A DNA stretch of 64,000 bases from Clostridia bacterium. GTDB taxonomy: Bacteria; Bacillota; Clostridia; UBA1212. How positions within the stretch are numbered: position 1 is the first letter of the stretch; each line of letters opens with the position of its first letter. Positions 3,711-47,025 of this stretch are shown here, piece by piece. Under the pieces are notes generated by a model. The model was given only the letters and a program-made list of their open reading frames with translations. It had not been told where the DNA came from and ran no database searches. Location: positions 4,560 to 68,559 of the forward strand of contig JAGDAX010000014.1 of NCBI GenBank assembly GCA_017848335.1, in the 5' to 3' direction. A program made the translations under genes and the position numbers.

Positions 3711-4985
3711 ATGGAAAAAGTTAAGATCGGCGTCTTCGGCGGTGCCAGAGGTTTTGTCATGGTGAGCCAGCTTTTGCACCACCCGGATGCGGAGCTTGTC
3801 GCGGTTTGCGACAAATACGAGCCGCTGCTGGACAACTGTAAAAAGGCCGCTGACGAGGCGGGCATACAGGTGGCGCTTTACACCTCGTTCGACGAGTTCA
3901 TCAGGCATGACATGGACGCAGTGGTGTTCGCCAATTATGCCAACGAGCATGCGATCTACGCGGTGAAATGCCTGAAGGCCGGCAAGCACGTGATGTCGGA
4001 GGTTCTTCCCGGGGAGACGCCGGCGCAGCTTGTCGCGCTGGTTGAGGCAGTCGAGGAGACCGGGCTCATTTATACGTACGCGGAAAATTACTGCTACATG
4101 AAGGCCCCCTTCGAGATGTGGAAGCGTTATCGGGCCGGCGACATTGGCGAGATCCAGTACGGCGAGGGCGAATACATTCACGATTGCACGGTCATCTGGC
4201 CGGATATCACCTACGGCGAGAGGGACCATTGGCGCAACAAGATGTTCGCGACCTTCTACTGTACGCATTCCTGCGGACCGCTGATCACGATTTCGGGGCT
4301 GCGGGCGGTCAAGGTGGTGGGCTTTGAGACCAATCTCAACCTGAACGAGAAGCAGATGCGCGTGGGAATTCCGGAGCGTGCGGGCATCGAGATGATCACG
4401 CTCGAAAACGGCGCGGTCGTCAAGAGCATTCACGGGGGCCTCAAGATGGAGCCGGGCAGCGTCAACTATCAGGTGTACGGTACCAAGGGCATGATGGAAT
4501 CGCAGCGCTACAGCTCCGCCGAGTTCAATATTTATCAGGAAGGCCCCAAGGTCTGCCAGGGCACGTGGGAGAACTACGACCCGCAGAACGACGTGGGCAG
4601 CTGGATCGCCGAGAAGTCCGACGGCCACGGCGGCAGCGACTTCTATACCACGCATTGCTTCGTGGAGAAGATACTCGGCAAGCCCGACGGGGAGTGGTGC
4701 ATTGACGTGTACACCGCCGCCAATATGGGCCTCTGCGGGATAATGGCCTGGCGCTCCGTGCTGGCCGGCAACGTCCCGATGGAGATACCGGATCTGCGCG
4801 ATCCCGCGGCAAGGGACAAGTGGAGGCACGACAACGCCTGCTGCACCGAGAGCGTGGCGGGGGATGCGTTGCTGCCGAAGTCGTCGTATCCGATTCCCGA
4901 GATCCCGGACGAGACCTATGAGGAGGTCAGGAAGCAGTGGCAGCGCAGCGAGGACAGCAAGATAAAGGATCTGTTCTGGCTGTAG
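3711..4985 (+). CDS. Gfo/Idh/MocA family oxidoreductase
   Basis: AGGAGG RBS. N-terminal Rossmann motif KIGVFGGARG, and the typical EVLP/EKP-like segment (HVMSEVLP). Confidence 0.9.
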   Translation: MEKVKIGVFGGARGFVMVSQLLHHPDAELVAVCDKYEPLLDNCKKAADEAGIQVALYTSFDEFIRHDMDAVVFANYANEHAIYAVKCLKAGKHVMSEVLPGETPAQLVALVEAVEETGLIYTYAENYCYMKAPFEMWKRYRAGDIGEIQYGEGEYIHDCTVIWPDITYGERDHWRNKMFATFYCTHSCGPLITISGLRAVKVVGFETNLNLNEKQMRVGIPERAGIEMITLENGAVVKSIHGGLKMEPGSVNYQVYGTKGMMESQRYSSAEFNIYQEGPKVCQGTWENYDPQNDVGSWIAEKSDGHGGSDFYTTHCFVEKILGKPDGEWCIDVYTAANMGLCGIMAWRSVLAGNVPMEIPDLRDPAARDKWRHDNACCTESVAGDALLPKSSYPIPEIPDETYEEVRKQWQRSEDSKIKDLFWL

Positions 4986-4987
4986 GG

Positions 4988-5149
4988 TGCGTGAATCGAA
5001 TGCGCGTGGATCGAATGCGCGTGAATCAAATCCGCGTGGATCGGGCCGCAGCTTCGTCCGCAAGGTGCGCGTGGATCAAATCCGCGTGGATCAAATTCGC
5101 GTGGTTCGGGCCGCGGCTTCGTCCGCAAGGTGCGCGTGGATCAAATCCG
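4988..5149. repeat. nested tandem repeat (15-bp GCGCGTGGATCAAAT-type units inside a ~60-bp higher-order repeat)
   Basis: Read directly. Starts 3 nt after the stop at 4985. The block CGTGGWTCGGGCCGCRGCTTCGTCCGCAAGGTGCGCGTGGATCAAATCC occurs twice. Confidence 0.85.
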
Positions 5150-5379
5150 TCAATGCGGACAGTCTATAAGCTGACAAGGGATATTATTTTAATTAAACGT
5201 CGTTTGACTTACAGGCTGTGACTGACAGCGACAGTCAGCGAAAGAGCGGGGAACCATGCCGGATCTTCGCTCTTTTGCTGATCGATATTTCCGTGAATTT
5301 TTGTCAGTGCTTCCTTTCGGCACTTTTTCAGCGAACCTGTGGGCGCGTCCTGTTTGCGGCCTTACTGTAAGCGGCTCTG

Positions 5380-34793: not shown

Positions 34794-35120
34794 AAAAAAT
34801 ACCTCCTTGGAGATTTCAATCAGGAGGTATTATATCAGTTTTGGAAAAATAGTACACTCAAAAATTGAATAGTTTTGGATCGGTTTGGATCGGTTTGGAC
34901 CGATATTTCCGGATAAGTGTTCACGAGATATTCACAGGATTTCTTAGGTCTGACAGCATCATCGGACAAGTGAAATAGTTTGTGCTGTCAGTGATGTATG
35001 TGATTATCACAACGAGGAATATAACAATTGCAGGATGTTGACATATAATATAATGACAAAGAAGTCATTTAAGCATAAAAGACCTAAATGGCTATAATAC
35101 AATGCATGCGGAGGATTATT

Positions 35121-35963
35121 ATGAACGTTAGACTGATTACATTGGATTTACTGTCTGAATTCCAAGCGAAACTTATTGATGACGAAAAAAGCAAATATAC
35201 TATCGAAAAGTATCTGCGCGATGTTAGGCAATTTATGGTCTTTTCTGAACAAAAGAATGTAGACAAGGCACTCGTAGTGTCATACAAGGCTATGTTAAAA
35301 GACAGTTATACAGTTGAAAGCGCTAATTCCATGCTGGCGTCGATAAATGCATTCTTCAGATTTGTCGGCTGGTTGGATATTATCGTAAAACAATACAGAG
35401 TACAGAAAAAAGTTTTTTGTGAAGAAGAGAAGGAGCTCACTCGTGAAGAATATCTTCGCCTTGTTCGAGCGGCAGAACATCAACACAACGAAAGATTGTC
35501 GCTCCTTTTGCAAACAATTTGCAGTACAGGAATTCGAATAAGCGAGCTTCAATACATAACAGTTGAAGCCGTACGAACGGGCAAAGCTATTGTTTCTTGC
35601 AAAAATAAAACAAGAAGTATTTTTATTGTTAAGAAGCTCCAAAACCTACTTATTTCATATTGTGAACGCAATTCAATCAAAACCGGACAGATATTCGTTA
35701 CTAAAACAGGAAACCCAATAAATCGCTCAAATGTGTGGCGCGAAATGAAAGCTGTCTGTAAGGAGGCAGGAGTAAATCCACAGAAAGTATTCCCTCATAA
35801 CCTGCGGCACCTTTTTGCAAGAGTTTTCTACGGTATCGAAAAAGATCTTGCAAAGCTGGCTGATATTATGGGACACAGTAACATAAATACCACCAGAATT
35901 TATATTATTGCTACCGGCATTGAGCATAAGAGAAAGATGGAAAATATGAAACTACTAATCTAA
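35121..35963 (+). CDS. tyrosine-type site-specific recombinase/integrase (280 aa, Xer/Cre-size, no arm-binding domain)
   Basis: GGAGG RBS before MNVRLITL. Catalytic signature in order: R (TGIRISEL), H-x-x-R (HNLRHLF), H (GHSNINTT), Y (TRIYI; Tyr codon 35901-35903). Confidence 0.9.
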   Translation: MNVRLITLDLLSEFQAKLIDDEKSKYTIEKYLRDVRQFMVFSEQKNVDKALVVSYKAMLKDSYTVESANSMLASINAFFRFVGWLDIIVKQYRVQKKVFCEEEKELTREEYLRLVRAAEHQHNERLSLLLQTICSTGIRISELQYITVEAVRTGKAIVSCKNKTRSIFIVKKLQNLLISYCERNSIKTGQIFVTKTGNPINRSNVWREMKAVCKEAGVNPQKVFPHNLRHLFARVFYGIEKDLAKLADIMGHSNINTTRIYIIATGIEHKRKMENMKLLI

Positions 35964-35988
35964 AAATAGGCAAATTAAGCGCTTTGAC

Positions 35989-36010
35989 AACATTATGAAT
36001 ATAATGTTGT
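35989..36010. repeat. left inverted repeat of the switch (ACATTATGAATATAATGTTGTA)
   Basis: Perfect 22-bp reverse complement of 36246-36267. Itself made of 10-bp inverted arms ACAACATTAT/ATAATGTTGT (35986-36009) around an asymmetric GAAT core. Confidence 0.9.
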
Positions 36011-36052
36011 AATGATTGGCTGAAATAGTTTAGATATTCATCAACACCGCGG

Positions 36053-36082
36053 TATTATATCACGCAATACCTTTTCTTCGCA
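36053..36082 (-). promoter_or_regulatory. candidate sigma-A promoter inside the switch, currently facing the recombinase gene
   Basis: On the minus strand: TTGCGA (36082-36077), 18-nt spacer ending in TGA, then TATAAT (36058-36053). This gives a perfect extended -10. Confidence 0.45.
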
Positions 36083-36245
36083 AGTTTTTTTACACGCAAA
36101 TCCATTTTTATGAAAAATGAGTGATGGAGAGAATCTACAGCTGATAATTTAAATCAAAATCAACTGTAAGAAATCTGTCACTAATTTCATTTAAATGGCT
36201 AAAAAGCTTTAAATCAAGATGTCTATAGATGAAGGGCGCAGGGGT

Positions 36246-36267
36246 ATACAACATTATATTCATAATG
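36246..36267. repeat. right inverted repeat of the switch (TACAACATTATATTCATAATGT)
   Basis: Perfect reverse complement of 35989-36010. The central core is ATTC, i.e. opposite orientation to the left site. Confidence 0.9.
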
Positions 36268-36363
36268 TATTCATTTGACTTTCTTACAAGTCTTTTTTAA
36301 AAGCAATTTCAATAAAAAACAGAAAACTACTGATTCCGGTGATTTAAAAAGAAAGGAAAAACT

Positions 36364-38538
36364 ATGAAAACCACCAAGTTTAAGTGCTTTTTTTTCGTTT
36401 TTTTGATGCTCTTGCTTCTCTGTTCAGGTATGACGTTAAGCAACTTTTTTGCTGCTGATGTACCTAACAGAGTTTTTTCTTCTCTGGCCATAGCAGAAGC
36501 AGGAAGCACAATAGAAATACCAATATTAATCGACAATAATACCGGCTTTGCAGGTATGGGCCTTGTGTTTAAGTATGATTCAACAAAAGTCCTGCCATTG
36601 GCCATTAAAACTTCCGGAAGTATTTTTAACGGAGGCATTGAAAATGATATCGGCAGATTTGATGGATTATTTTCAGTGAACTTAAGCGGAATTGATGACG
36701 AAACAGACAACGGACTTTTGTTCACTATCACTTTTCATGTAAATGAATCTGCTGACGGAAGTACCATTATTAACGTCAGTTATGATCAAGAAAACACATT
36801 TGATGAATCGATTGAAGATGTTGCTCTCTTTTGCGAAGATATCAGTTTGACAATTCAAAACGACTTTGGAGATATGCCTGTACTCCGGCTCTCGTCCTCC
36901 CCGGTATACGCAGGGGAAAATGTGAAAATTACAGGTTCATTTGCTAAAGCAGGATTGTTAGATGAAGCTGAAATTATCTTGTCCTTTGATTCCTCTGCTT
37001 TTGAGTATGTCTCAATGAACGCTTTAAATGGTTCAATTGCTATCTCAAATATTATTTTTACGGAAAACAACTTAAGATTTCGAATGACGGTTACATCACC
37101 CATAGCTGGAGATGACTTGTTTGTTTTAACATTACACGCCAACCCGTCTGCCACCGGTAATTATTCTGTAACCGGTTACTCAAAGTTCATGTCAATTATT
37201 GAAGGCAATGTCACTGTTAATTCTCTTGACAGTATTGCAATAATAAGAAGCGATTCAGACATGAGTGCGCTGCAGCACGAATCTCTGGTTATTCCGGTAT
37301 ATCTGGAGAATAATCCCGGACTAATGGGATATAAGCTTACCATTAAGTATAATCCAACGATTATGACGCCTCTTTCTGTTGCAAACAGTGGTGTTTTCAC
37401 AGGAACATTTGATGACAATATAGGAATTCATACAGATTATTTTGACGTTAAATGGTATGGTACTGAACAGGAAACACAAAATGGTAAATTATTTGACATT
37501 ACGTTTAGAATCGATACTGATGAGTATTGTGTTCCTACGGTTTTAATAGAATACTCTCAACCTGATACTTTCAATGAGGAATACCAAGATGTTGCTATGA
37601 ATTGCAGAAGCGTGAAAGTCCTAGTTAATCCGAACCTTAGGCCTGAACTGAAGTTTTCGGGTGCATCTCTGACCTTGCACGATAATATCGCAATCAATTT
37701 TAAGGCTGATAGGAAGTTGTTTACGGATCTGGGGTATTCTGATCCTTTTGTAATATTTACCATGAATGGTGTAGAAACAACAGTTCATAAATATCGAATA
37801 ATTGATGACAAGGTGGTTTTTGATTTCAACAATATTGCTCCTCATAAGCTGAATGACACCGTCTATGTCACATTATATGCCACATACTCAGGCGAGGAAA
37901 CAATAAGCATGACACGCGAATACAGTGTCGCAACATACTGCTACAATATGCTTACTAAATATTCAACAGATGAGTATTCAAAGCTGCGCACATTGCTAGT
38001 GAATCTCTTAAATTATGGCGAATCGTCTCAAATATACGCTAACTACAAAACCGATGCTCTTGTGACAAAGGACTTAACACCGCTTCAAAAGATGTGGGGA
38101 ACGCAAGAATCTCCTTCACTGAAAACAGTCTACAATCCTGCATACACCGTCCTTGATTCACCATCCGTTCAATGGGAAGGCGTAGGCCTGAATTTAACAA
38201 ACTCTGTTGCAATGAGATTCAGGATCACGACAGCCGGCATCGCGGGTTTATCAGTTAAGGTGTCCGGTTCATCGGGTGGCGAATGGATAATCAATAATAC
38301 ATCTTTTGTACCGACTAATGGCGGGTATTATGTTTACTTTAACGGTTTGAATGTTGCTCAACTGAGCGAACCGGTTTATCTTACGGTTTATGATGGCAAC
38401 GTACCTGTCAGCAATACAATATGTTACAGTGTTGAATCATATGCATACGCAAATCAGAATGATTCAGATCAAAAGCTTTCGGATTTAGTTATTTCTATGA
38501 TGAATTACGGGAATTCTGCGTATGCATATGTGCATTGA
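36364..38538 (+). CDS. secreted protein with three cohesin-like modules and a duplicated C-terminal domain
   Basis: Signal peptide (KCFFFVFLMLLLLCSG). Cohesin-like blocks at about nt 36475-36861, 36877-37224 and 37231-37626 (e.g. AGSTIEIPILIDNNTGFAGMGLVFKYD...NGLLFTITFHV). C-terminal ~300 aa is an internal duplication ending ...LLNYGESSQIY / ...MMNYGNSAYAY. Confidence 0.8.
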   Translation: MKTTKFKCFFFVFLMLLLLCSGMTLSNFFAADVPNRVFSSLAIAEAGSTIEIPILIDNNTGFAGMGLVFKYDSTKVLPLAIKTSGSIFNGGIENDIGRFDGLFSVNLSGIDDETDNGLLFTITFHVNESADGSTIINVSYDQENTFDESIEDVALFCEDISLTIQNDFGDMPVLRLSSSPVYAGENVKITGSFAKAGLLDEAEIILSFDSSAFEYVSMNALNGSIAISNIIFTENNLRFRMTVTSPIAGDDLFVLTLHANPSATGNYSVTGYSKFMSIIEGNVTVNSLDSIAIIRSDSDMSALQHESLVIPVYLENNPGLMGYKLTIKYNPTIMTPLSVANSGVFTGTFDDNIGIHTDYFDVKWYGTEQETQNGKLFDITFRIDTDEYCVPTVLIEYSQPDTFNEEYQDVAMNCRSVKVLVNPNLRPELKFSGASLTLHDNIAINFKADRKLFTDLGYSDPFVIFTMNGVETTVHKYRIIDDKVVFDFNNIAPHKLNDTVYVTLYATYSGEETISMTREYSVATYCYNMLTKYSTDEYSKLRTLLVNLLNYGESSQIYANYKTDALVTKDLTPLQKMWGTQESPSLKTVYNPAYTVLDSPSVQWEGVGLNLTNSVAMRFRITTAGIAGLSVKVSGSSGGEWIINNTSFVPTNGGYYVYFNGLNVAQLSEPVYLTVYDGNVPVSNTICYSVESYAYANQNDSDQKLSDLVISMMNYGNSAYAYVH

Positions 38539-38630
38539 CACATATAAAAGAATAAAATGACCCATTAGAACAGTATAAAATTATGCAAGAAATTATGAAT
38601 AAATATGTATTTAGTACGGAGGAAAAGCTT

Positions 38631-41600
38631 ATGAAAAAAACAGCCTTGAGATTGCTGAGCATAGGTTTGGCGATAATAATGCTTGTTTCGGTTTTGCCGC
38701 TGAATGTGTTGGCAGTGAAAACTTCGTTGCAAGAAATCAATCTTTTTAGGGCAGAGATATATGCAAATGGTAAAAAAGCAACAAATACCAAAAGTTTTGT
38801 GGAGTATATTTCAGTCAATCAAGCAAATATATTTTCGAGTGTTGGCAACATATCAACACCTGTTCAAGTGTACTACAAGTTAGCTAAGGAAGACTTTTGG
38901 TATCAGTTTGGATTAAAAGAGTGGGAGGCGATACATGTTTTTGCTTCGCCTTCACATATTACTGAAACGGGTGAAGTGACCATTTACGAGTATTATGAAG
39001 CCATTTTGATGGACTTGATTAACAGAAATACTAATGGTACAAACGAAACACTTAAAATGGTCGATGGTGTGGCGAGTGGGGTTTACAACTCGATTTATAG
39101 TTCTTATACGAAAACATTTACGACTTTGATGCAACAAGTTTTTGCTGAGAATCCCGATATTACTGTTGAAACAATTACAACAGCAAAAACATCAAAAACA
39201 GTTAAAAATTTGTTATCAAAAGTAACAGATGAAAACTCTTACAAAAAGACCTCTGCTCTTCTCGACTTGTTAGAAACCTGTGGAAATGTTAGAGATGCTA
39301 TAAAAACCGTTTCTGCGTACAGTGCGCTATGTGATTATTTTGACGGGACAAAAGAGGTTTTGTCGTTTATTGCTAACGATCAAAACTCAACAAATCCAGT
39401 TCAATTAAAGATAGCAGCGAATAACATATTGTCCTGCTTTGATGAATCTGTTCAATCCTCGTTGAAATCGCTGGAAATTGGCGGGATAGAAATGGCAATC
39501 AAGACTGCCGGTCAAGTTATCGACAACAGTTATTCAAAAGCAATAAGTTCTAATCCGTATTTACTTGCTGCATATTTGACGGCAAAAACTGGACGGTTTA
39601 TTTTTAATGAGTTATGTAGTGTAGATAAACAAGCTGCAACGTATTATCAAATTGAGGCCAATGCCATATTTGAAAACGAATTAAAGCGTGTAGTTGATGA
39701 GTTTAGAAGTCGTTTCAATGCAAGTAAAACCGAGAAAGATGCGAAAGCATATCTTCGTGCCGTACAGATGTTCGAAGATAATATTCTTTTAGGTTGTGAT
39801 TATGTTTACGAATTTGCCTCGACAAATATCAATACAGTTTGGAATACTATTTTTGGATTAAATAAAAAGCACCAAGAGGCACTTAATGAAATCATATCTC
39901 TCAAGGGGTTGTATCAGATGGCTTTTGAAGACTATGAGAATTCTCACGTTTCAAAAGCATGGAGACAAACGTATGGTATTACTGCTGAGGAAGAGGATAT
40001 TATTAATGAAACAAACGATAATGGAACTGCTCTTTCTGGAGAAAAGGTGTTCGCTGATAAAATTGCAGTCCTAAAAAAGGAATACCCACAAGGAAAATAC
40101 TGGAATCAATATAATGGATTGGATTCGAATGGTGTAGCAAAAGCGGGAGATATAATTTGCAGTGGGACTGCGTCTTATGATAGTAAACAATGTATTTCTC
40201 ATGGGTACTGTGCATACAAAGGAAAATCATGTAGTTGTAAGTGCGGATACTTCCACGGTTGGCAATGCTTTGGATTTGCAAATCTGATGGCTTATAAAGT
40301 GTTTGGATCATATGCAACTAATGGGTATACTGCAAGCGATGTCAATTCAAGCAAGGGCTGGGTGTATTATAAATCTGTCTCGTCGTATTACGTTGGCGAT
40401 GTTGTAAGAATTAATAATAATCACTCAATCTTCATTACAAAAATAATAGGCGCTGGGATACAATATGTGGATTGCAATAATTCCGGTCCGTGCAAAATCA
40501 ACTGGAATAACACTATCACCGCCGAGAACTTAGCAAAGAAAACGACTTTTGTTGTCAGAAACACTAATTCATCGCTATCATCACTAAGTGGTTCAAGTGT
40601 TAACGGAAGTACGGTTAGTAACACTGTTTCTTATAAAATATCAAGCGCAAAAGCAACATCAATCACCAATAAATCTGCAACTATTTCTGTTGGTTTAAAT
40701 CAAAAGGCATCTGTTTCAAAGTGGACTTATTTTGTAAGCACAAACAAAAATGCGCTGGTTAATCTGGACGGAACAAGCGGAAGCACACATAAATCGACCA
40801 ATACTGTTACATGCCGTCGTATTCTTGATTACCAAGCCAACCCGAAATATGAGAAATCTGATACTTTCACAATTTCAAAACATCAGGGAGAAGATTTGAA
40901 ACCGAATACCACTTATTACTATAAAGTAACCGTATCTATAAATGGTAAGTGGTATTCAACAGGCGTTCAAAGCTTCAAAACCACCAATTATCTGCCGGAC
41001 GCTGCAAGCCTTCGTGTTTCGCGGGATAGCCAGGTGGTTGGTGTAGGCGATTCAATCACGCTTCTTTGGGATTCCACAAAGAATACAGATACCTACAGCA
41101 TTGAAGTTAAAGACGTTAATGGTATAACTGTTCAAAAGAAGACGAATATTAAAGGATTAACATACACTTTAGATCCTATTTCTGAAAGCGGCGCATATAC
41201 CGCTACAATCACCTCCGTTAATGCGGTAGGTGAGAAGTTCGGAACGAGTGCAGAATTCACCGTAGAGCCCAATCGTCTTGTGCGGTTTTATGACACGATT
41301 TCGGATGAGATGATTTACGAAGAATCTGTTCCATATGGGCACAGTGCGAATGCCCCGAAAGCGCCTACTCATTATGGACATACGTTCAGTCAATGGAACA
41401 GAAGTTATGAAAAAATCAAAGATAGCGGTGAAGGCGATGAACACATCATTACTGTTAATACGGTTTATGATCTGAACACGTATACCGTTAGATTCATTGA
41501 TGCATTTACCAATGAAATAATCAGTTCGCAATCGGTCAAGTATAAAAAATCCGCTGTTGCGCCGGTATCATTGCCGGAGCACAAAGGTTTTGAGTTTATC

Positions 41601-44600
41601 TCATGGGACAAAGGATATTCAAGTATTGAAAAGGATACGGATATCTATACTGTCTATCAGTGGGAGGATCCGGATCATCTTGCTATTCTAACAATTGATG
41701 GTGTAACACGCACAATTCCGAAAGAAAACAGCGAAGAAAATGTTGGATACGATGTTTCGGTAACGATCAGCAATTCTGCCGATAGAATTATCAGCGGAAG
41801 AGTGGTTGCCGTATTAAAATCTGCGGAGGGGACTATTCTTTCGCAGTCCGAATCTGCCGCTTTCGCGGTGGATAAGGCGCCGATGGATGCATCGGGTTCG
41901 ATTATCGGAACGACGGATAGGCAAGTAACCTTTACAGTCTTGTATGATGATTTTGCACCTCAAATCGAATTGTACCTGATCAACGACTATGACAAACTGG
42001 GGCAATTGGCACCTATGGTCAGCACTGATATTGATAATACCGGTGTATGGTCCGGATTGATTCGATTTGAAGGTGATGAACCTCCGGTTCAGTCTGACCC
42101 CGAAAAAGGTATCACGGTAGCTCTTGAAGGTCCCTTCAATGAGACAATCAAGTATTATCGTTATCGTATCCTTGAAAAGTCATATGAAACTTCTGCCTCC
42201 ACAGCCGGATACACGCAGTCAGGATATACAAAGGTGAACGCGCAGCAAAAGAGCGTAGATTATGTTGTCTCTTGGCCTTCCGGGTTTTTGAAGACAAATT
42301 CACTTTATACGCAGTATAACAAACAGCCCGTTACGGCTTCTGAAACAGCAACGCAGATTATAGAGGTCAGTTCGCCGACAACCAAGGGATATATTTATTA
42401 TCATTGGTGCATGGGGACGTATGCAAACGGTCCGATTAACCGTGGAATCAACGGCTCTAAGACTTCAACTTACAAGCAGTTCCATGCGTTCTATACCACC
42501 TCCGCAGTTTCATTTGATTCATCGGCGAAGGCTTATAAAAAATCAGTTTCCGGAACTTGTAAGGATACTTATTGGTGGTATGGCCTCACTCCGGATAAAA
42601 GCGGTAACATAATCGTTAAAACTCAGAATTATACGGTATATGACAAACTATACAATTACTATTCCGAGTATTCTGAATGGATTCCATATGTCGGTGAATG
42701 TCCTCTGACAAATGGGGCGTTGGTTGATGGTGATGCCAACAAAACTTATGAGGTGGAAACAAAGACAGAGACCAATGATTATTATTGCTATAAGTATTGC
42801 ATAAATAATACTCCTGAAGAACCTGTGTTTTCTGATGATGATCCCAGGGTTGTTAGTATCTCTGGTACGATTAGTTCGAAATTTGCAGCAAAGACAGCGA
42901 CCGTATGGATTTACAAGTATTCTCAGGCATCGGATTACACAACTGAATATGTTGGAAACACCATCGTTGGATGCGAAGGTCAATTATCTATTGAGCGTGC
43001 CGTGTTAAGAGAGGCTCCTTCTGTGCAAAGCGGTGACTATACTATTGTTGTATCTGTGCCGGGACAGGAACAAGCACTTCATCTTGGAACAATCAAAGCA
43101 CCAAAAGCAAAATATACAGTTGTTTTTGAAGATTATTTCGGCAATGTTATTTCTTCGCAAGAAATAACAGAAGGAGACTCAGCATTTGTTCCCGATTCTT
43201 CGCTTACTTGCGCTCCGGCCGGGTACCGTTTTGCCCGTTGGTCAGAATCTGTTGTCAACGTTAGGGGCAATTTAACTGTAAAGCCGGAGTTTGAAAAGAT
43301 GACCTTTGTCGTTGCATTTGTTGATTGGAATGATCAAAGCGTTATTTTGAACGAAAATATTGAATATGGATCAGAGTTGGTTTCTATAAGCTCACCTGCG
43401 GAAATCGAGGGTTATGATACTGAATGGGTCGTCCAAATCGACGATCAGTATTTAACTATCGAGGAGTTTACAGATAGCGGATACACAGTGACAGGTAATA
43501 TGGTAGTTACAACAAGAAATACGCCTAAGGATTACTCTGTCATCTTCCTGGATGCCGATCCCGAAGTTGTTCTTGAAAACAAACTACAAAATATTGATAG
43601 CGATAAGCTTTCGCCAATTGGTATTTCAGAGAACACAAATAATATTGAGGTTTTGGCAAACACCACTGTAACTTATGGTATCGGTATTGATTATTCCGCC
43701 GTTATTGAACTGGAAGAAAACGAAGATTACGTTTTCATGGGATGGATCAATGCTGCAACAGGGGAAGCATTAGAGTCTGCTGATATAACCGAATCGGTTG
43801 TTCTATACCCACGTTATGTCTTTGCTGAGACAGTTGAAATACCCGTTGCATCTATGGATAACGGAGAATATTCAGAAACGATTGAAGTTGAATTAACTCA
43901 GGAATTTGAAAGCGCTTCCATTTGGTATACATTGGATGGAACTGATCCGAAGATATCTAACACAGCAATGGAGTATACAGGAACGATAATAATCGATCAT
44001 TCGTGTGTTCTTCGGTATTATTCGAGCGCTCTCGGATTCAATGATAGTGATGAAGGATATAGGGCTTTTGCTGTCAACCTTTCTGATGATAATCGTTATC
44101 ATGTTGTTACGGTGTATGCAGTTGCAAATGTTGGACCCCTGGTGAAAGGGGAACCCTCGATTGGTCTGGTAAAAGAAGGAATTACATTACCAAACAGTTT
44201 GTTCTCCGATGCATTTGAAGGATATGCTTTTAATGGGGTTTATAAAGATTTTGACTGTAGCGAATTATTTGTTCCCGAGGCAGAAGAAATTACAGACTCC
44301 TTAGCTTTCTATGCACATTATGAGCCAATCGAGTATACTGTACATTTCTATGGGTTTGATGGAAGCTCACTTTCAACACAGACAGTTTCTTACGGAAACA
44401 AAGCTGAAGCGCCCATTGCTCCGGAAGTTGACGGATATGTGCTTGCAGGATGGGATGGTGATTACTCGTTTGTTGACGACGATCTTGACGTTTTCGCTCG
44501 ATATATTACTCCTGACGAATACGCGACAATCAGCCTTGATAAAAAGGCTATCACATTGAATGTTGGCGCATCTTACGCAAACCTTCAGACGACAATTACC

Positions 44601-45203
44601 CCGACCATCCATTCCAATTACGAGATCGAATGGTATTCCTCAAATGACGATATTGCCTCCGTAGATGAAAACGGTGTGATTACAGCGCTCTCGATTGGAT
44701 TCACAACGATTACAGCCAAACTTCCTTACACTGGTGAAACTGCAGAAGTTACTGTTAAAGTTGCTTACGATTTGGATCGTGAAATTGTCCTTTTACAGGG
44801 TGCCACAATGGGATTTGACGTGAATCGCAATCTTCGATTAACTCCAAATAATGATCTGACTGTAGATGGGGTTTTGAGATGGTTTGAAAATGCAAATCTT
44901 TCTATTTGTAAAGCTGATGGAACTGAACTTTCAGGAGATGATTTGGTCGGGACCGGATGTGTCGTCAGGCTTATGAATGATGGCGATTTAATCGACTTTT
45001 CGATAATCATTTTGACCGGTGATTACAATGGAGATGGCAAAATCAACAACAGAGACGTGGTAATGCTGAACCAGCTGATTATGGATAAACGCGATGCGGA
45101 TATCTGGCAAATAATGGCTCTTGATGTGAACGGTGACGGATATATAAATAATCGTGACAGCGCGATGCTGGCCAGATACCTTGTAGGTAAAGAAACTCTT
45201 TAG
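38631..45203 (+). CDS. giant secreted multidomain protein (2,190 aa): helical N-domain, Cys/His papain-like module, FN3, Listeria-Bacteroides repeats, BIG2, C-terminal dockerin
   Basis: GGAGGA RBS before MKKTALRLLSIGLAIIMLV (signal peptide). GWQCFGFA...NNNHSIFI module. At least five Y-x-V-x-F...G-(Y/F)-x-F-x-x-W repeats. BIG2-like block ISLDKKAITLNVG...ITAKL. Dockerin GDYNGDGKINNRD / DVNGDGYINNRD at 45018-45200. Confidence 0.9.
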   Translation: MKKTALRLLSIGLAIIMLVSVLPLNVLAVKTSLQEINLFRAEIYANGKKATNTKSFVEYISVNQANIFSSVGNISTPVQVYYKLAKEDFWYQFGLKEWEAIHVFASPSHITETGEVTIYEYYEAILMDLINRNTNGTNETLKMVDGVASGVYNSIYSSYTKTFTTLMQQVFAENPDITVETITTAKTSKTVKNLLSKVTDENSYKKTSALLDLLETCGNVRDAIKTVSAYSALCDYFDGTKEVLSFIANDQNSTNPVQLKIAANNILSCFDESVQSSLKSLEIGGIEMAIKTAGQVIDNSYSKAISSNPYLLAAYLTAKTGRFIFNELCSVDKQAATYYQIEANAIFENELKRVVDEFRSRFNASKTEKDAKAYLRAVQMFEDNILLGCDYVYEFASTNINTVWNTIFGLNKKHQEALNEIISLKGLYQMAFEDYENSHVSKAWRQTYGITAEEEDIINETNDNGTALSGEKVFADKIAVLKKEYPQGKYWNQYNGLDSNGVAKAGDIICSGTASYDSKQCISHGYCAYKGKSCSCKCGYFHGWQCFGFANLMAYKVFGSYATNGYTASDVNSSKGWVYYKSVSSYYVGDVVRINNNHSIFITKIIGAGIQYVDCNNSGPCKINWNNTITAENLAKKTTFVVRNTNSSLSSLSGSSVNGSTVSNTVSYKISSAKATSITNKSATISVGLNQKASVSKWTYFVSTNKNALVNLDGTSGSTHKSTNTVTCRRILDYQANPKYEKSDTFTISKHQGEDLKPNTTYYYKVTVSINGKWYSTGVQSFKTTNYLPDAASLRVSRDSQVVGVGDSITLLWDSTKNTDTYSIEVKDVNGITVQKKTNIKGLTYTLDPISESGAYTATITSVNAVGEKFGTSAEFTVEPNRLVRFYDTISDEMIYEESVPYGHSANAPKAPTHYGHTFSQWNRSYEKIKDSGEGDEHIITVNTVYDLNTYTVRFIDAFTNEIISSQSVKYKKSAVAPVSLPEHKGFEFISWDKGYSSIEKDTDIYTVYQWEDPDHLAILTIDGVTRTIPKENSEENVGYDVSVTISNSADRIISGRVVAVLKSAEGTILSQSESAAFAVDKAPMDASGSIIGTTDRQVTFTVLYDDFAPQIELYLINDYDKLGQLAPMVSTDIDNTGVWSGLIRFEGDEPPVQSDPEKGITVALEGPFNETIKYYRYRILEKSYETSASTAGYTQSGYTKVNAQQKSVDYVVSWPSGFLKTNSLYTQYNKQPVTASETATQIIEVSSPTTKGYIYYHWCMGTYANGPINRGINGSKTSTYKQFHAFYTTSAVSFDSSAKAYKKSVSGTCKDTYWWYGLTPDKSGNIIVKTQNYTVYDKLYNYYSEYSEWIPYVGECPLTNGALVDGDANKTYEVETKTETNDYYCYKYCINNTPEEPVFSDDDPRVVSISGTISSKFAAKTATVWIYKYSQASDYTTEYVGNTIVGCEGQLSIERAVLREAPSVQSGDYTIVVSVPGQEQALHLGTIKAPKAKYTVVFEDYFGNVISSQEITEGDSAFVPDSSLTCAPAGYRFARWSESVVNVRGNLTVKPEFEKMTFVVAFVDWNDQSVILNENIEYGSELVSISSPAEIEGYDTEWVVQIDDQYLTIEEFTDSGYTVTGNMVVTTRNTPKDYSVIFLDADPEVVLENKLQNIDSDKLSPIGISENTNNIEVLANTTVTYGIGIDYSAVIELEENEDYVFMGWINAATGEALESADITESVVLYPRYVFAETVEIPVASMDNGEYSETIEVELTQEFESASIWYTLDGTDPKISNTAMEYTGTIIIDHSCVLRYYSSALGFNDSDEGYRAFAVNLSDDNRYHVVTVYAVANVGPLVKGEPSIGLVKEGITLPNSLFSDAFEGYAFNGVYKDFDCSELFVPEAEEITDSLAFYAHYEPIEYTVHFYGFDGSSLSTQTVSYGNKAEAPIAPEVDGYVLAGWDGDYSFVDDDLDVFARYITPDEYATISLDKKAITLNVGASYANLQTTITPTIHSNYEIEWYSSNDDIASVDENGVITALSIGFTTITAKLPYTGETAEVTVKVAYDLDREIVLLQGATMGFDVNRNLRLTPNNDLTVDGVLRWFENANLSICKADGTELSGDDLVGTGCVVRLMNDGDLIDFSIIILTGDYNGDGKINNRDVVMLNQLIMDKRDADIWQIMALDVNGDGYINNRDSAMLARYLVGKETL

Positions 45204-45218
45204 AGGAAGGTGTTTATA

Positions 45219-45332
45219 ATGAACATTTTTGAATTCCCAATCATTGAGATATTTTGCTTTAATACAGAAGCCGATATAGTTACAGCCAGTAATCAAGGCG
45301 ATGGCGTCGTTTTACCGGATGATAACTGGTGA
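45219..45332 (+). CDS. unlisted small ORF (37 aa): MNIFEFPIIEIFCFNTEADIVTASNQGDGVVLPDDNW
   Basis: AGGAAGG RBS 8 nt upstream of the ATG. Begins 16 nt after the giant gene's stop and ends 46 nt before the island terminator. Below the 60-aa cutoff of the ORF track. Confidence 0.4.
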   Translation: MNIFEFPIIEIFCFNTEADIVTASNQGDGVVLPDDNW

Positions 45333-45378
45333 TTCATAATAGCAGGCGTTAAAACTTTAACATTATCATATATAATCA

Positions 45379-45422
45379 AGCCGGGACAGATGCTTTATTC
45401 ATTGCTTTGTCCCGGCTTTTTA
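45379..45422 (+). terminator. Rho-independent terminator closing the island operon
   Basis: AGCCGGGACA / TGTCCCGGCT 10-bp stem followed by TTTTT. Confidence 0.8.
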
Positions 45423-45448
45423 TTTAAGAAGCTGTTGGGCTTTTCAGT

Positions 45449-45556
45449 AATTTTGTGATGAGATGAGGATAAAAAGCCGGAATTTTGTGATGAAACGGCT
45501 CGAATTATCCGGAATTTTGTGATGAAACAGCCCAAATTATATGTAATTTTGTGATG
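45449..45556. repeat. 32-bp period tandem repeat x4 (AATTTTGTGATGAAAC...)
   Basis: AATTTTGTGATG recurs at 45449, 45481, 45513 and 45545 (exact 32-bp spacing). Ends 5 nt from the aminotransferase stop. Confidence 0.9.
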
Positions 45557-45560
45557 GCGG

Positions 45561-46865
45561 TCATTCCGCCAGCAGCTTCTCGATAGAGCAGATCTTAACG
45601 CACACGCACAAGATCTTGATGGCCGCTTCAAGCTCTTCCGGCGGAGGAAGGGTAGGCGCGATGCGGATGTTCCTGTCCTCGGGGTCATTCTTGCGGGGGT
45701 AGGTCGAGCCGGCGGGCGTAAATTTCACGCCGCACTCCTTGGCCTTCGCCACCACCGCGGAAGCGCAGCCGGGAAGTGTGTCTATGCTTATAAAATAGCC
45801 GCCGTCGGGATGGGTCCAGGTGAGTATGCCAAGGCCCTCCAGCTCATTGGTGAGTATCTTGTCCACCGCCGCGAACTTGGGCCGCAGGATCTCGGCGTGT
45901 CTCTTCATGTGCGCGATAATACCCTTGTAATCCTTGAGGAAACGCGCGTGCCTCAGCTGGTTGATCTTGTCGTAGCCGATGGTCTGCACCGTCAGGTATG
46001 ACAGGAGGTATTTGATATTGGCGATGGAGCCGCAGACCGCGGAAATGCCGCTGCCCGGGAAGGTGATCTTAGAGGTTGACCCGAAAAGGAAGACCCGCTC
46101 CGGGTTGCCGGCCTCCTTGCAGGCGTCGAGAAGGTTGAGCTGCTTCGCCGGGGCGTCGCCCAGGAAGTGCACCGTGTATGCGTCGTCGCACATAATGCGG
46201 AAGTCGGGAGCGGCGGTCTTCATGGCGGCCAGGCGTCTTATTTTCGCGTCGGAAAACACCTCGCCTGTGGGGTTTGAGTACTTCGGAACCATCCACATGC
46301 CCTTCACGGCGGGATCCTTCACCAGTTCCTCCACCAGATCCATGTCCGGGCCGTCGCCTGTCAGCGGCACGTTGATCATCTCAAAGCCCAGCTTTTCGGT
46401 GACCAGGAAGTGCCTGTCGTACCCGGGAACGGGGCACAGCCACTTGATCTTGCCCTGCTTCGTCCAGGGCTCCGAGCCGCCTGAGCTGCCGTTGCCGCCG
46501 GTGCCGAAAAGCATGAACCTCACCAGCATGTCGTACATGAGGTTGAGGCTCGAGTTGCCGCACACGACAATCTCATCCGTGCCGACGCCCATCATCTCGG
46601 CCATCAGCTGCTTCGCCTCCGGTATGCCGTCCAGCACGCCGTAGTTTCTGACCTCCTGATTGGATATGGAATTGAAGCCCTTGAGGTACTTTCTGCTGAC
46701 CATGTCGTTGGAGAGGTCCAGCTGGTCGCGGCAAGGCTTCCCGCGGGTGAGGTCGTAGGAAAGCTCGAGGTTCTTATAGCGGTTGAACGTGACGTATTGC
46801 TCGGAAAGCAGCTCCGAAAGCTGTTCTTTGCTCATTTTTGCGTATTCCATATTTGCGTGTTCCAT
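45561..46865 (-). CDS. class I/II PLP-dependent aminotransferase
   Basis: AAGGAG RBS before MEHANMEYAKMSKEQ. PKYSNPTG and GSTSKITFPGSGIS (PLP-lysine region) fit the aspartate-aminotransferase fold family. The upstream 44 codons of the listed ORF lie in a repeat. Confidence 0.85.
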   Translation of the reverse strand: MEHANMEYAKMSKEQLSELLSEQYVTFNRYKNLELSYDLTRGKPCRDQLDLSNDMVSRKYLKGFNSISNQEVRNYGVLDGIPEAKQLMAEMMGVGTDEIVVCGNSSLNLMYDMLVRFMLFGTGGNGSSGGSEPWTKQGKIKWLCPVPGYDRHFLVTEKLGFEMINVPLTGDGPDMDLVEELVKDPAVKGMWMVPKYSNPTGEVFSDAKIRRLAAMKTAAPDFRIMCDDAYTVHFLGDAPAKQLNLLDACKEAGNPERVFLFGSTSKITFPGSGISAVCGSIANIKYLLSYLTVQTIGYDKINQLRHARFLKDYKGIIAHMKRHAEILRPKFAAVDKILTNELEGLGILTWTHPDGGYFISIDTLPGCASAVVAKAKECGVKFTPAGSTYPRKNDPEDRNIRIAPTLPPPEELEAAIKILCVCVKICSIEKLLAE

Positions 46866-46913
46866 CTTTGCGCTCCTTGAAAAGTTTTGTGCGGTCTGTT
46901 CGACAATGTGCTG

Positions 46914-47025
46914 CCTGCGCGGCAACGTGCGGTCTGCGCGGCAATCTGTCTGCGCGGCAATCTGTCTGCGCGGCAATCTGTCTGCGCGGTAATACATTCG
47001 TGCGGTAATAGTGCGGCAAACGCGG
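46914..47025. repeat. 16-bp tandem repeat, about 5 copies (CTGCGCGGCAATCTGT) with degenerate tail
   Basis: Read directly between the amidohydrolase stop and the aminotransferase start. Confidence 0.9.

Follow-up and report, generated by a model that had tools for sequence, protein, structure and literature searches.

We have analyzed a 64-kb stretch of Clostridia DNA (the window) in which a gene for a tyrosine recombinase is followed by a short intergenic segment flanked by inverted repeats and then by two genes coding for proteins with cohesin and dockerin domains. This arrangement had been interpreted in an earlier sequence-only reading as a phase-variation switch. The recombination sites, the presence of both orientations of the segment in public assemblies, the conservation within a family of related loci and the promoter predicted in the segment all support this interpretation, and we consider it very likely that the locus is an invertible switch (inverton) for the cohesin/dockerin pair.

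The recombinase gene (35121–35963, forward strand) codes for a protein of 280 aa, the presumed invertase. It matches the Pfam family Phage_integrase (PF00589, E 9e-26), in agreement with the tyrosine recombinase of this length that had been placed upstream of the left site, and carries an N-terminal SAM-like domain (PF02899). The ATG at 35121, located after a GGAGG, is supported as start by the homologues, which are 279–280 aa long. The closest solved structures are XerA-like (4a8e, E 1e-20), and in the alignment with 4a8e the motifs GIRISEL (Arg), HNLRH (His, Arg), GHS (His) and RIY (Tyr261) fell on identical residues, while the catalytic Lys was assigned by eye. All the residues of the tyrosine recombinase superfamily (R-K-H-R-H/W-Y) are found in the protein, and the structure alignment puts the codon of the catalytic Tyr261, TAT, at 35901–35903, exactly where it had been predicted. 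The predicted protein is Xer-like in fold and domain order only. Membership of the Xer equivalogs of NCBIfam was rejected, with scores of 131 bits against a cut-off of 220 for XerA, 115 against 330 for XerD and 109 against 335 for XerC. No second recombinase was found in the 64 kb, 35121–35963 being the sole copy. A putative promoter for the gene (ATAACA-17-TATAAT, 35021–35049, forward strand), a weak match of 10 out of 12 positions in a consensus scan, is located outside the switch.

Direct reading of 35000–36700 together with a repeat search gave a perfect 22-nt inverted repeat, 35990–36011 being the reverse complement of 36247–36268. The length and the perfect match were those described before, but the coordinates then given (35989–36010 and 36246–36267) were one base too low. 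The repeat can be extended to 27 nt at 93% (two mismatches, 35985–36011 and 36247–36273), and the two 22-nt arms are 235 nt apart (36012–36246), as had been stated. Sequence and repeat search resolve two recombination sites here. The left one (35987–36010) is a perfect 10+4+10 palindrome made of the arm ACAACATTAT (35987–35996), the core GAAT (35997–36000) and the arm ATAATGTTGT (36001–36010). The right one (36248–36271), for which the ends of two contigs described below (L072 and L071) are further evidence, has the arm ACAACATTAT, the core ATTC, which is the reverse complement of the left core, and the arm ATAATGTATT, this outer arm being degenerate beyond 7 nt. Both sites are near-palindromes with the common form ACAACATTAT-GAAT/ATTC-ATAATGT, and the architecture proposed for them, two inverted arms around an asymmetric core with opposite orientation in the two sites, is the one seen here and, as shown below, in most homologous loci. 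Allowing up to three mismatches, the 24-mer site occurs only twice in the 64 kb, at the positions given above, and was not matched in any of 100 dinucleotide-preserving shuffles. A short intergenic segment flanked by inverted repeats, as found in invertons, is present at the expected place, with the recombinase stop codon before the left site and the first cargo ATG (36364) 95 nt after the right repeat.

The invertible segment itself (36012–36246, 235 bp) is delimited by the inverted repeats, by a junction found in the opposite orientation (contig L003, below) and by the two orientations seen among relatives. The best promoter match of the region lies within it, TTGCGA-18-TGaTATAAT with an extended -10, on the reverse strand (36083 to 36054) and directed at the recombinase gene. 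Since this promoter points away from the cargo and toward the recombinase, the window appears to have been assembled in the OFF state. After inversion, it would be found at approximately 36175–36204 on the forward strand, reading across the right site toward the gene that starts at 36364. On the far side of the promoter, folding revealed a long imperfect hairpin or palindrome (36120–36182), with -17 kcal/mol on either strand and z about -2.5, that is the counterpart of a hairpin flanked by an A-tract and a T-tract in the rest of the family.

Sites, promoter and hairpin in related loci

A scan with the recombinase over one genome per GTDB species, keeping matches of at least 120 residues, gave 64 loci with 52–71% identity, all of them in metagenome-assembled genomes (MAGs) of Clostridia from the ruminant or human gut (Oscillospiraceae, Acutalibacteraceae, Christensenellaceae and 'Eubacteriales'). 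The sites were counted by a strict pattern search in the 54 loci in which 450 nt or more of downstream sequence were available. A pair with the form CATAAY-NNNN-RTTATG, flanked by ACAA and TTGT, was present in 45 of them and a pair with slightly deviant arms in 5 of the remaining 9, so that the conservation of both sites, which had been put forward as a check of the switch, is found across the family. In the 45 loci the median distance from the recombinase stop to the start of the first site is 35 nt, and the two 16-nt site cores are separated by a median of 245 nt (range 189–309 nt), a spacing maintained in about 50 species. The 4-nt core takes 22 distinct values, none self-complementary, and the 6-nt centre is identical as an inverted repeat in every one of the 45. 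A core free to vary, with partners that remain matched and asymmetric, would be the pattern expected of the crossover region of a tyrosine recombinase. The window has the arm variant CATTAT (CATAAT in the relatives) in three of its four half-sites, each site being kept palindromic.

Some loci depart from the simple pair. In L024, L027, L041, L043, L052, L055, L067 and L075, the DNA downstream of the recombinase has the site three times, twice in direct and once in inverted orientation, which would allow two alternative inversions or a deletion between the direct copies. The left and right cores are not complementary in L021 (CTTC/ACAA, at +64 and +338) and L035 (CGGC/TTCG, at +61 and +384), and these switches may be locked or decayed. 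The module is present too in cultured species, namely Monoglobus pectinilyticus, with the site ACATAAT-TTTG-ATTATGTTGTA and a gap of 252 nt, and Subdoligranulum variabile, with two modules. In Pusillibacter faecalis MM59 (L074, pMM59_01, 4839–5158) a recombinase with 45% identity precedes an inverted repeat of another sequence, TCCTATAGACAAAAACAACATTTCGT (26 nt, gap of 268 nt), located upstream of an S-layer-homology protein. This locus looks like a sister branch with another site specificity.

The promoter is nearly universal among the relatives. In about 45 loci the segment has one strong TTGnnn-17-TGnTATAAT promoter at a conserved position, the -35 starting approximately 135–180 nt from one segment end and the -10 ending 27–50 nt before the other site in most loci. 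Its direction varies, with about 15 loci in which it faces the cargo and about 32 in which it faces the recombinase. The proposal that this is specifically an invertible promoter switch gains support in this way, the segment carrying a predicted promoter that is found facing either way among relatives. From its consensus and position, the promoter may be active and may drive the cargo.

The hairpin is present in nearly all relatives, with the consensus GCATGAC-AAAAA-GCCTTTCC...GGAAAGGC-TTTTT-GTCATGC, and can be much more stable than in the window (for instance -27 to -30 kcal/mol on either strand and z about -6 in L004). Compensatory changes were detected in 7 of the 9 pairs of the outer stem, in which G-U and A-C mismatches are about equally frequent, and this near equality fits a function on both strands or at the level of DNA. 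The inner GC stem, located between the A-tract and the T-tract, looks like a bidirectional intrinsic terminator, and the hairpin probably terminates transcription. RNAalifold recovered only the outer 9-bp stem, as MAFFT misaligned the inner one, which is visible only in single-sequence folds. An Rfam search of 34800–36800 gave no match. The outer stem (GCATAAC...GTTATGC or GCATGAC...GTCATGC, e.g., in L009, L042 and L043) resembles the half-site CATAAC/GTTATG; this resemblance does not covary across loci with the local site variant and is absent from the window hairpin.

Orientation of the segment in assemblies

Exact-protein look-up of the recombinase gave three kinds of contigs from the lineage of the window, two of them (L001 and L002) collinear with it and one (L003; ENA ERZ28653711, scaffold_17107) not. 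In L003 the recombinase and the left site are identical to those of the window, but past the left site the sequence continues with TACCCCTGCGCCCTTCATCTATAGACATCTTGA, the exact reverse complement of 36214–36246, i.e., of the far end of the segment. The junctions expected of the flipped form are GCGCTTTGACAACATTATGAATATAATGTTGTA joined to TACCCCTGCG and CTATTTCAGCCAATCAT joined to TACAACATTATATTCATAATGTATTCA. Three more contigs were obtained through a variant of the cohesin protein (P0126), the exact protein of the window not being on record. L070 contains the full locus in the window orientation, L071 starts 33 nt inside the segment, beside the right site, and L072, assembled from the sample that also gave L003, has the first base of the right repeat (36247) as its own first base. 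By contig, the window, L001, L002 and L070 are OFF and L003 is ON at its left junction. A scan of the JGI metagenome contigs with the 22-nt repeat gave no matches, the lineage being absent there.

The way in which these contigs end is informative in itself. The last 55 nt of L003 (the 22 of the repeat plus 33), read as reverse complement, are identical to the first 55 nt of L071. Such an overlap would be the output of a de Bruijn graph with k=55, a value that we infer from this arithmetic, at a vertex common to two configurations. As the repeat of 22–27 nt is shorter than such k, the k-mers of the flipped junction must derive from reads of flipped molecules. The contig breaks fit branch points of the assembly graph produced by mixed orientations, and at least two samples appear to hold such mixtures. 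The inversion that had been predicted is therefore seen in the flipped left junction of L003, to which the breaks of L071 and L072 at the right-hand site can be added.

The relatives offer complete cases. When comparing L048 and L053, the flanks were 98.6% and 99.5% identical in the forward direction, and the interior was 98% identical as reverse complement versus 59% forward. The interiors of L037 and L051 were 97% identical as reverse complement, and those of L023/L030 and L028/L030 were 83% and 78%. Besides, 10 of the 64 species-representative contigs (L012, L016, L017, L019, L026, L032, L039, L043, L045 and L047) end 50–411 nt after the recombinase stop, within or at the switch. Such a number far exceeds chance placement and is what a polymorphic inversion usually leaves in metagenome assemblies, and it suggests orientation heterogeneity in many of the source samples. 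Taken with the L003 junction and the contig breaks, the inversions among relatives place both orientations in natural populations.

Cargo genes and the low-GC island

The first cargo gene (36364–38538, forward strand) codes for a secreted protein of 724 aa with a hydrophobic, signal-like N-terminal sequence and two cohesin domains (Pfam Cohesin, PF00963, E 6e-16, in two stretches). The second (38583–45203, forward strand) codes for a protein of 2206 aa with a C-terminal type I dockerin (PF00404), to which the PDB dockerin matches at residues 2142–2205 correspond, together with Flg_new, Big_2 and CHB_HEX_C domains; no recognisable family was found in its N-terminal ~1750 aa. A cohesin protein and a dockerin protein, the two partners of a cellulosome-type system, are present side by side, and no glycoside hydrolase domain was found. 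Judging from these domains, the two proteins probably bind each other on the cell surface. The unit is closed by a terminator-like hairpin identified by direct reading (45380–45425, forward strand; GCCGGGACA...TGTCCCGGC followed by TTTTTATTT), after which comes a convergent gene (45561–46997), and for this reason we consider that the cargo consists of two genes. The cohesin/dockerin operon of the sequence-only reading stands as to the domains, with the qualification that the operon amounts to just these two genes. A small open reading frame of 37 aa (MNIFEFPIIEIFCFNTEADIVTASNQGDGVVLPDDNW; approximately 45219–45332, forward strand) with a good ribosome-binding site (GAGGAAGG) is located directly after the dockerin gene, inside the switched unit. 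Between the terminator and the stop of the convergent gene there are four tandem copies of a 32-nt unit (45447–45560), each formed by G[T/G]AATTTTGTGATG and 18 variable nt.

In the related loci, the genes downstream of the switch are nearly always co-directional with the recombinase, while those upstream of the recombinase have random direction (27 plus and 29 minus), which indicates that the switch serves the downstream side; a second cargo on the other side was ruled out by the same numbers. The possibility of a conserved cohesin island was also discarded, as a phmmer comparison of the window cargo with the genes downstream of the 64 recombinases gave one weak match only, to a repeat domain. 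What is found there instead is very diverse, including a HerA-like ATPase, a non-ribosomal peptide synthetase (NRPS), an SPFH/zinc-ribbon protein, a collagen/Flg_new surface protein, beta-helix/camelysin-like proteins, a trypsin-FHA protein and TetR-led operons. With a cargo that changes from locus to locus and conservation restricted to recombinase and switch, these two parts together behave as a portable module.

The part of the window that holds recombinase, switch and cargo (35000–45500) is a low-GC island, with 35–43% GC versus 57–62% in the flanks, whereas the GC of the module equals that of the host in most relatives. The low GC suggests a recent horizontal acquisition here. No tRNA was found in the 64-kb window and no direct repeats at the island borders. 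At its left edge (approximately 34866–34900), between an M18 aminopeptidase gene and the recombinase promoter, there is a tandem repeat, GGTTTGGATC(G), in three copies.

A more general view can be put forward tentatively, although we think it somewhat less probable than its negation: the recombinase, the two-arm sites, a bidirectional terminator and the promoter might constitute a self-contained and horizontally mobile 'switch cassette' of the Oscillospirales, Monoglobales and related gut Clostridia that provides phase variation to any operon located downstream. The operons found behind it include NRPS, HerA-like, SPFH, collagen-like adhesin and TetR-led examples and, in the window, the putative cohesin-dockerin surface complex.

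Proposed mechanism, alternatives and relation to known switches

In the switch that we propose, the recombinase would be made from its own promoter outside the segment and would bind as dimers to the two near-palindromic sites, with arms of 9–10 bp around an asymmetric crossover core of 4–6 bp. With both arms of both sites bound, a synapse would form and strands would be exchanged in the core, and the opposite orientation of the cores would lead to inversion of the 235-bp segment rather than its deletion. In the OFF state the order would be recombinase gene, left site, reversed promoter, hairpin, right site and cargo; the promoter would fire antisense to the recombinase gene, the hairpin would stand between that gene and the cargo, and the genes starting at 36364 and 38583 would be silent. 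In the ON state (recombinase gene, left site, hairpin, promoter, right site, cargo) the promoter would read across the right site and a leader of ~150 nt into the cohesin gene and then into the giant dockerin-protein gene, and the hairpin would stop read-through from the recombinase gene. If the hairpin terminates both ways, the cargo would be insulated from recombinase read-through in both states and the direction of the promoter alone would decide. The population would divide into cells with and without the surface complex. More speculatively, the antisense RNA made on the recombinase gene in the OFF state might feed back on switching. That it is this recombinase that catalyzes the inversion is suggested by its association with the site pair in 45 of 54 loci.

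Several observations weigh against this interpretation. Contig L003 stops after 33 nt of the flipped segment and contains only the left junction, and the flipped junction on the cohesin side (CTATTTCAGCCAATCAT + TACAACATTAT...) was found in none of the retrieved contigs. The variable core has only 4 nt (6 with the flanking Y/R positions), which is at the short end for tyrosine recombinases. Promoter and terminator are predictions from consensus or structure, a terminator scan of 34800–36500 found none, and the window hairpin is weak, lacking the clear GC stem and the T-run of its relatives. Finally, another, unlinked recombinase might act on the sites, as RecV does in C. difficile.

The closest competing explanation accepts that the segment inverts and attributes control to a terminator or to antisense transcription instead of to an internal promoter driving the cargo. 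It could operate as in cwpV, with the cargo transcribed from the recombinase promoter or another upstream one and the orientation of the hairpin deciding read-through, or the main target could be the recombinase itself, through an antisense promoter. The conserved hairpin in the segments, the OFF promoter being antisense to the recombinase gene and the precedent of the cwpV switch, which is terminator-based and has its promoter outside the switch (PMC2784873), are all in line with it. We nevertheless consider it improbable. The hairpin is symmetric, with the A-tract on one side, the T-tract on the other and similar numbers of G-U and A-C mismatches, and should consequently act alike in both orientations, giving no ON/OFF difference by itself. 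The only conserved element that depends strongly on orientation is the extended -10 promoter, kept at a fixed distance (mostly 27–50 nt) from the site that it faces, and the consistently co-directional downstream genes fit a promoter that serves them. It is less probable still that we are dealing with dif-like Xer sites, or with the attachment sites or ends of a mobile island, the recombinase being the island integrase or resolvase and the inversion incidental. The Xer-like recombinase, the low-GC island and a module that must move, given that the cargo differs between loci, would be compatible with this, and in some plasmids inverted pairs of Xer sites flank mobile modules. Yet the two sites are found together on one side of the recombinase, within 300 bp, and enclose only a promoter and a hairpin, not an island; there is no copy of the site at the other island border or elsewhere in the 64 kb, nor any tRNA in the window; the spacing of 189–309 nt is kept across about 50 species; and whole-segment inversions with intact flanks are found among relatives.

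We give the least credit, and very little, to the idea that there is no programmed inversion at all, in which case the repeat would be a palindrome for protein binding, or a relic, and assembly would have produced the flipped contig as a chimera. The shortness of the flipped stretch in L003, which ends after 33 nt, would agree with a chimera, as would the single orientation shared by the four full-length assemblies of the lineage (the window, L001/L069, L002/L068 and L070). However, a chimera at a repeat of 22–27 nt is unlikely with k-mers of at least 55, contigs break at both repeats and in two samples, and complete inversions with conserved flanks have occurred in independent lineages. The covariation of left and right cores across 22 core types and the 10 of 64 related contigs that end less than 450 nt after the recombinase gene point in the same direction.

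To a specialist, finding an inverton next to a tyrosine recombinase in a gut Clostridium is no surprise, as this is a well-known kind of switch. The comparative evidence for the present one is unusually clean. Like in fimS, the recombinase gene is immediately upstream of the switch and reads toward it (the fimE-fimS-fimA layout), the enzyme is a tyrosine recombinase acting on inverted-repeat sites, and the promoter for downstream genes of a surface structure, a predicted one in our case, is located in an invertible segment of only 314 bp in fimS and 235 bp in the window. However, fim has two recombinases and here there is one; FimB and FimE have ~200 aa and no N-terminal SAM-like domain, in contrast with the Xer-like 280 aa found here; the fim inverted repeats have 9 bp and each site here is a full two-arm palindrome; and the present switch has a conserved terminator-like hairpin. 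The kinship with FimB/E that had been drawn on earlier holds for the layout and fails for the enzyme, which is outside that family (30.4 and 26.5 bits with the NCBIfam models PRK09870 and PRK09871, versus cut-offs of 221 and 222).

The RecV switches of C. difficile (cwpV, flgB and others) also belong to the Clostridia, and in them a tyrosine recombinase inverts ~150–200 bp upstream of surface-protein or flagellar operons (PMC2784873, PMC5903667). They are set apart by their organization, RecV being a remote master recombinase for several unrelated repeats, whereas here the recombinase is adjacent and dedicated and the site is conserved over the whole family. Furthermore, the cwpV switch has no internal promoter and acts by terminator formation (PMC2784873), while in the present one the promoter is inside. 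A probable match can be recognized in inverton group 139 of a 2025 read-based survey of the defined gut community hCom2, with 33 invertons (32 from Clostridia), all intergenic, with repeats of 13–25 nt some 206–228 nt apart and nearly all near the tyrosine 'invertase group 35'; reads demonstrated that they invert, e.g., in Intestinimonas butyriciproducens and Clostridium sp. D5 (PMC11892184). Our family shares this geometry and has members in Subdoligranulum variabile and Oscillospiraceae, and judged by geometry and taxa, not by sequence, it is probably this same group 139 with invertase group 35. That publication gives no site anatomy, no promoter/terminator layout and no cohesin/dockerin cargo (PMC11892184).

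In their anatomy the sites recall those of Cre/loxP, Flp/FRT and XerA or XerH/dif, with two inverted arms for one recombinase species and a short asymmetric spacer whose orientation sets inversion versus excision. They differ from loxP (13+8+13) in having arms of ~9–10 bp and a variable core of 4–6 bp, and from all of these systems in their role, which would be gene regulation and not plasmid maintenance or resolution of chromosome dimers. The Mpi/Tsr switches of Bacteroidales are likewise promoter invertons for surface structures of gut commensals, some with an adjacent tyrosine recombinase, but they belong to another phylum with other promoter type and repeat motifs, and Mpi is a globally acting serine recombinase.

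As to the cargo, our literature search found no paper linking phase variation or inversion to the cellulosome, and cohesin, dockerin and 'phase-variable' appeared together only in a general review of surface-colonization proteins. A cohesin/dockerin cargo for a switch of this kind appears to be unreported and, if the more general view given above is right, phase-variable display of cohesin and dockerin would be seen here for the first time. The antisense promoter of the OFF state could in that case provide an orientation-dependent feedback on the switching rate, a functional analogue of the orientational control of fimE reached by a different mechanism. Good documentation exists for the promoter invertons of Bacteroidales, Enterobacteria and C. 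difficile, and those of the uncultured Clostridia, dominant in the hindgut of ruminants and humans, are poorly characterized. The locus and its ~50 relatives provide a full and simple anatomy, in which a single recombinase is accompanied by a Cre/lox-like site whose core varies freely, a single promoter and a single terminator-like hairpin. This anatomy is recognizable from sequence without reads and could be used to annotate phase-variable operons in MAGs. The many natural variants of the core might also make it a compact orthogonal inversion module, and the cultured carriers, Subdoligranulum variabile and Monoglobus pectinilyticus, make the switch accessible to experiment. For the biology of these microbes, the locus suggests that cohesin-dockerin surface assemblies may be heterogeneously expressed within a population, which bears on the origin of fibre-attached versus free-living subpopulations.

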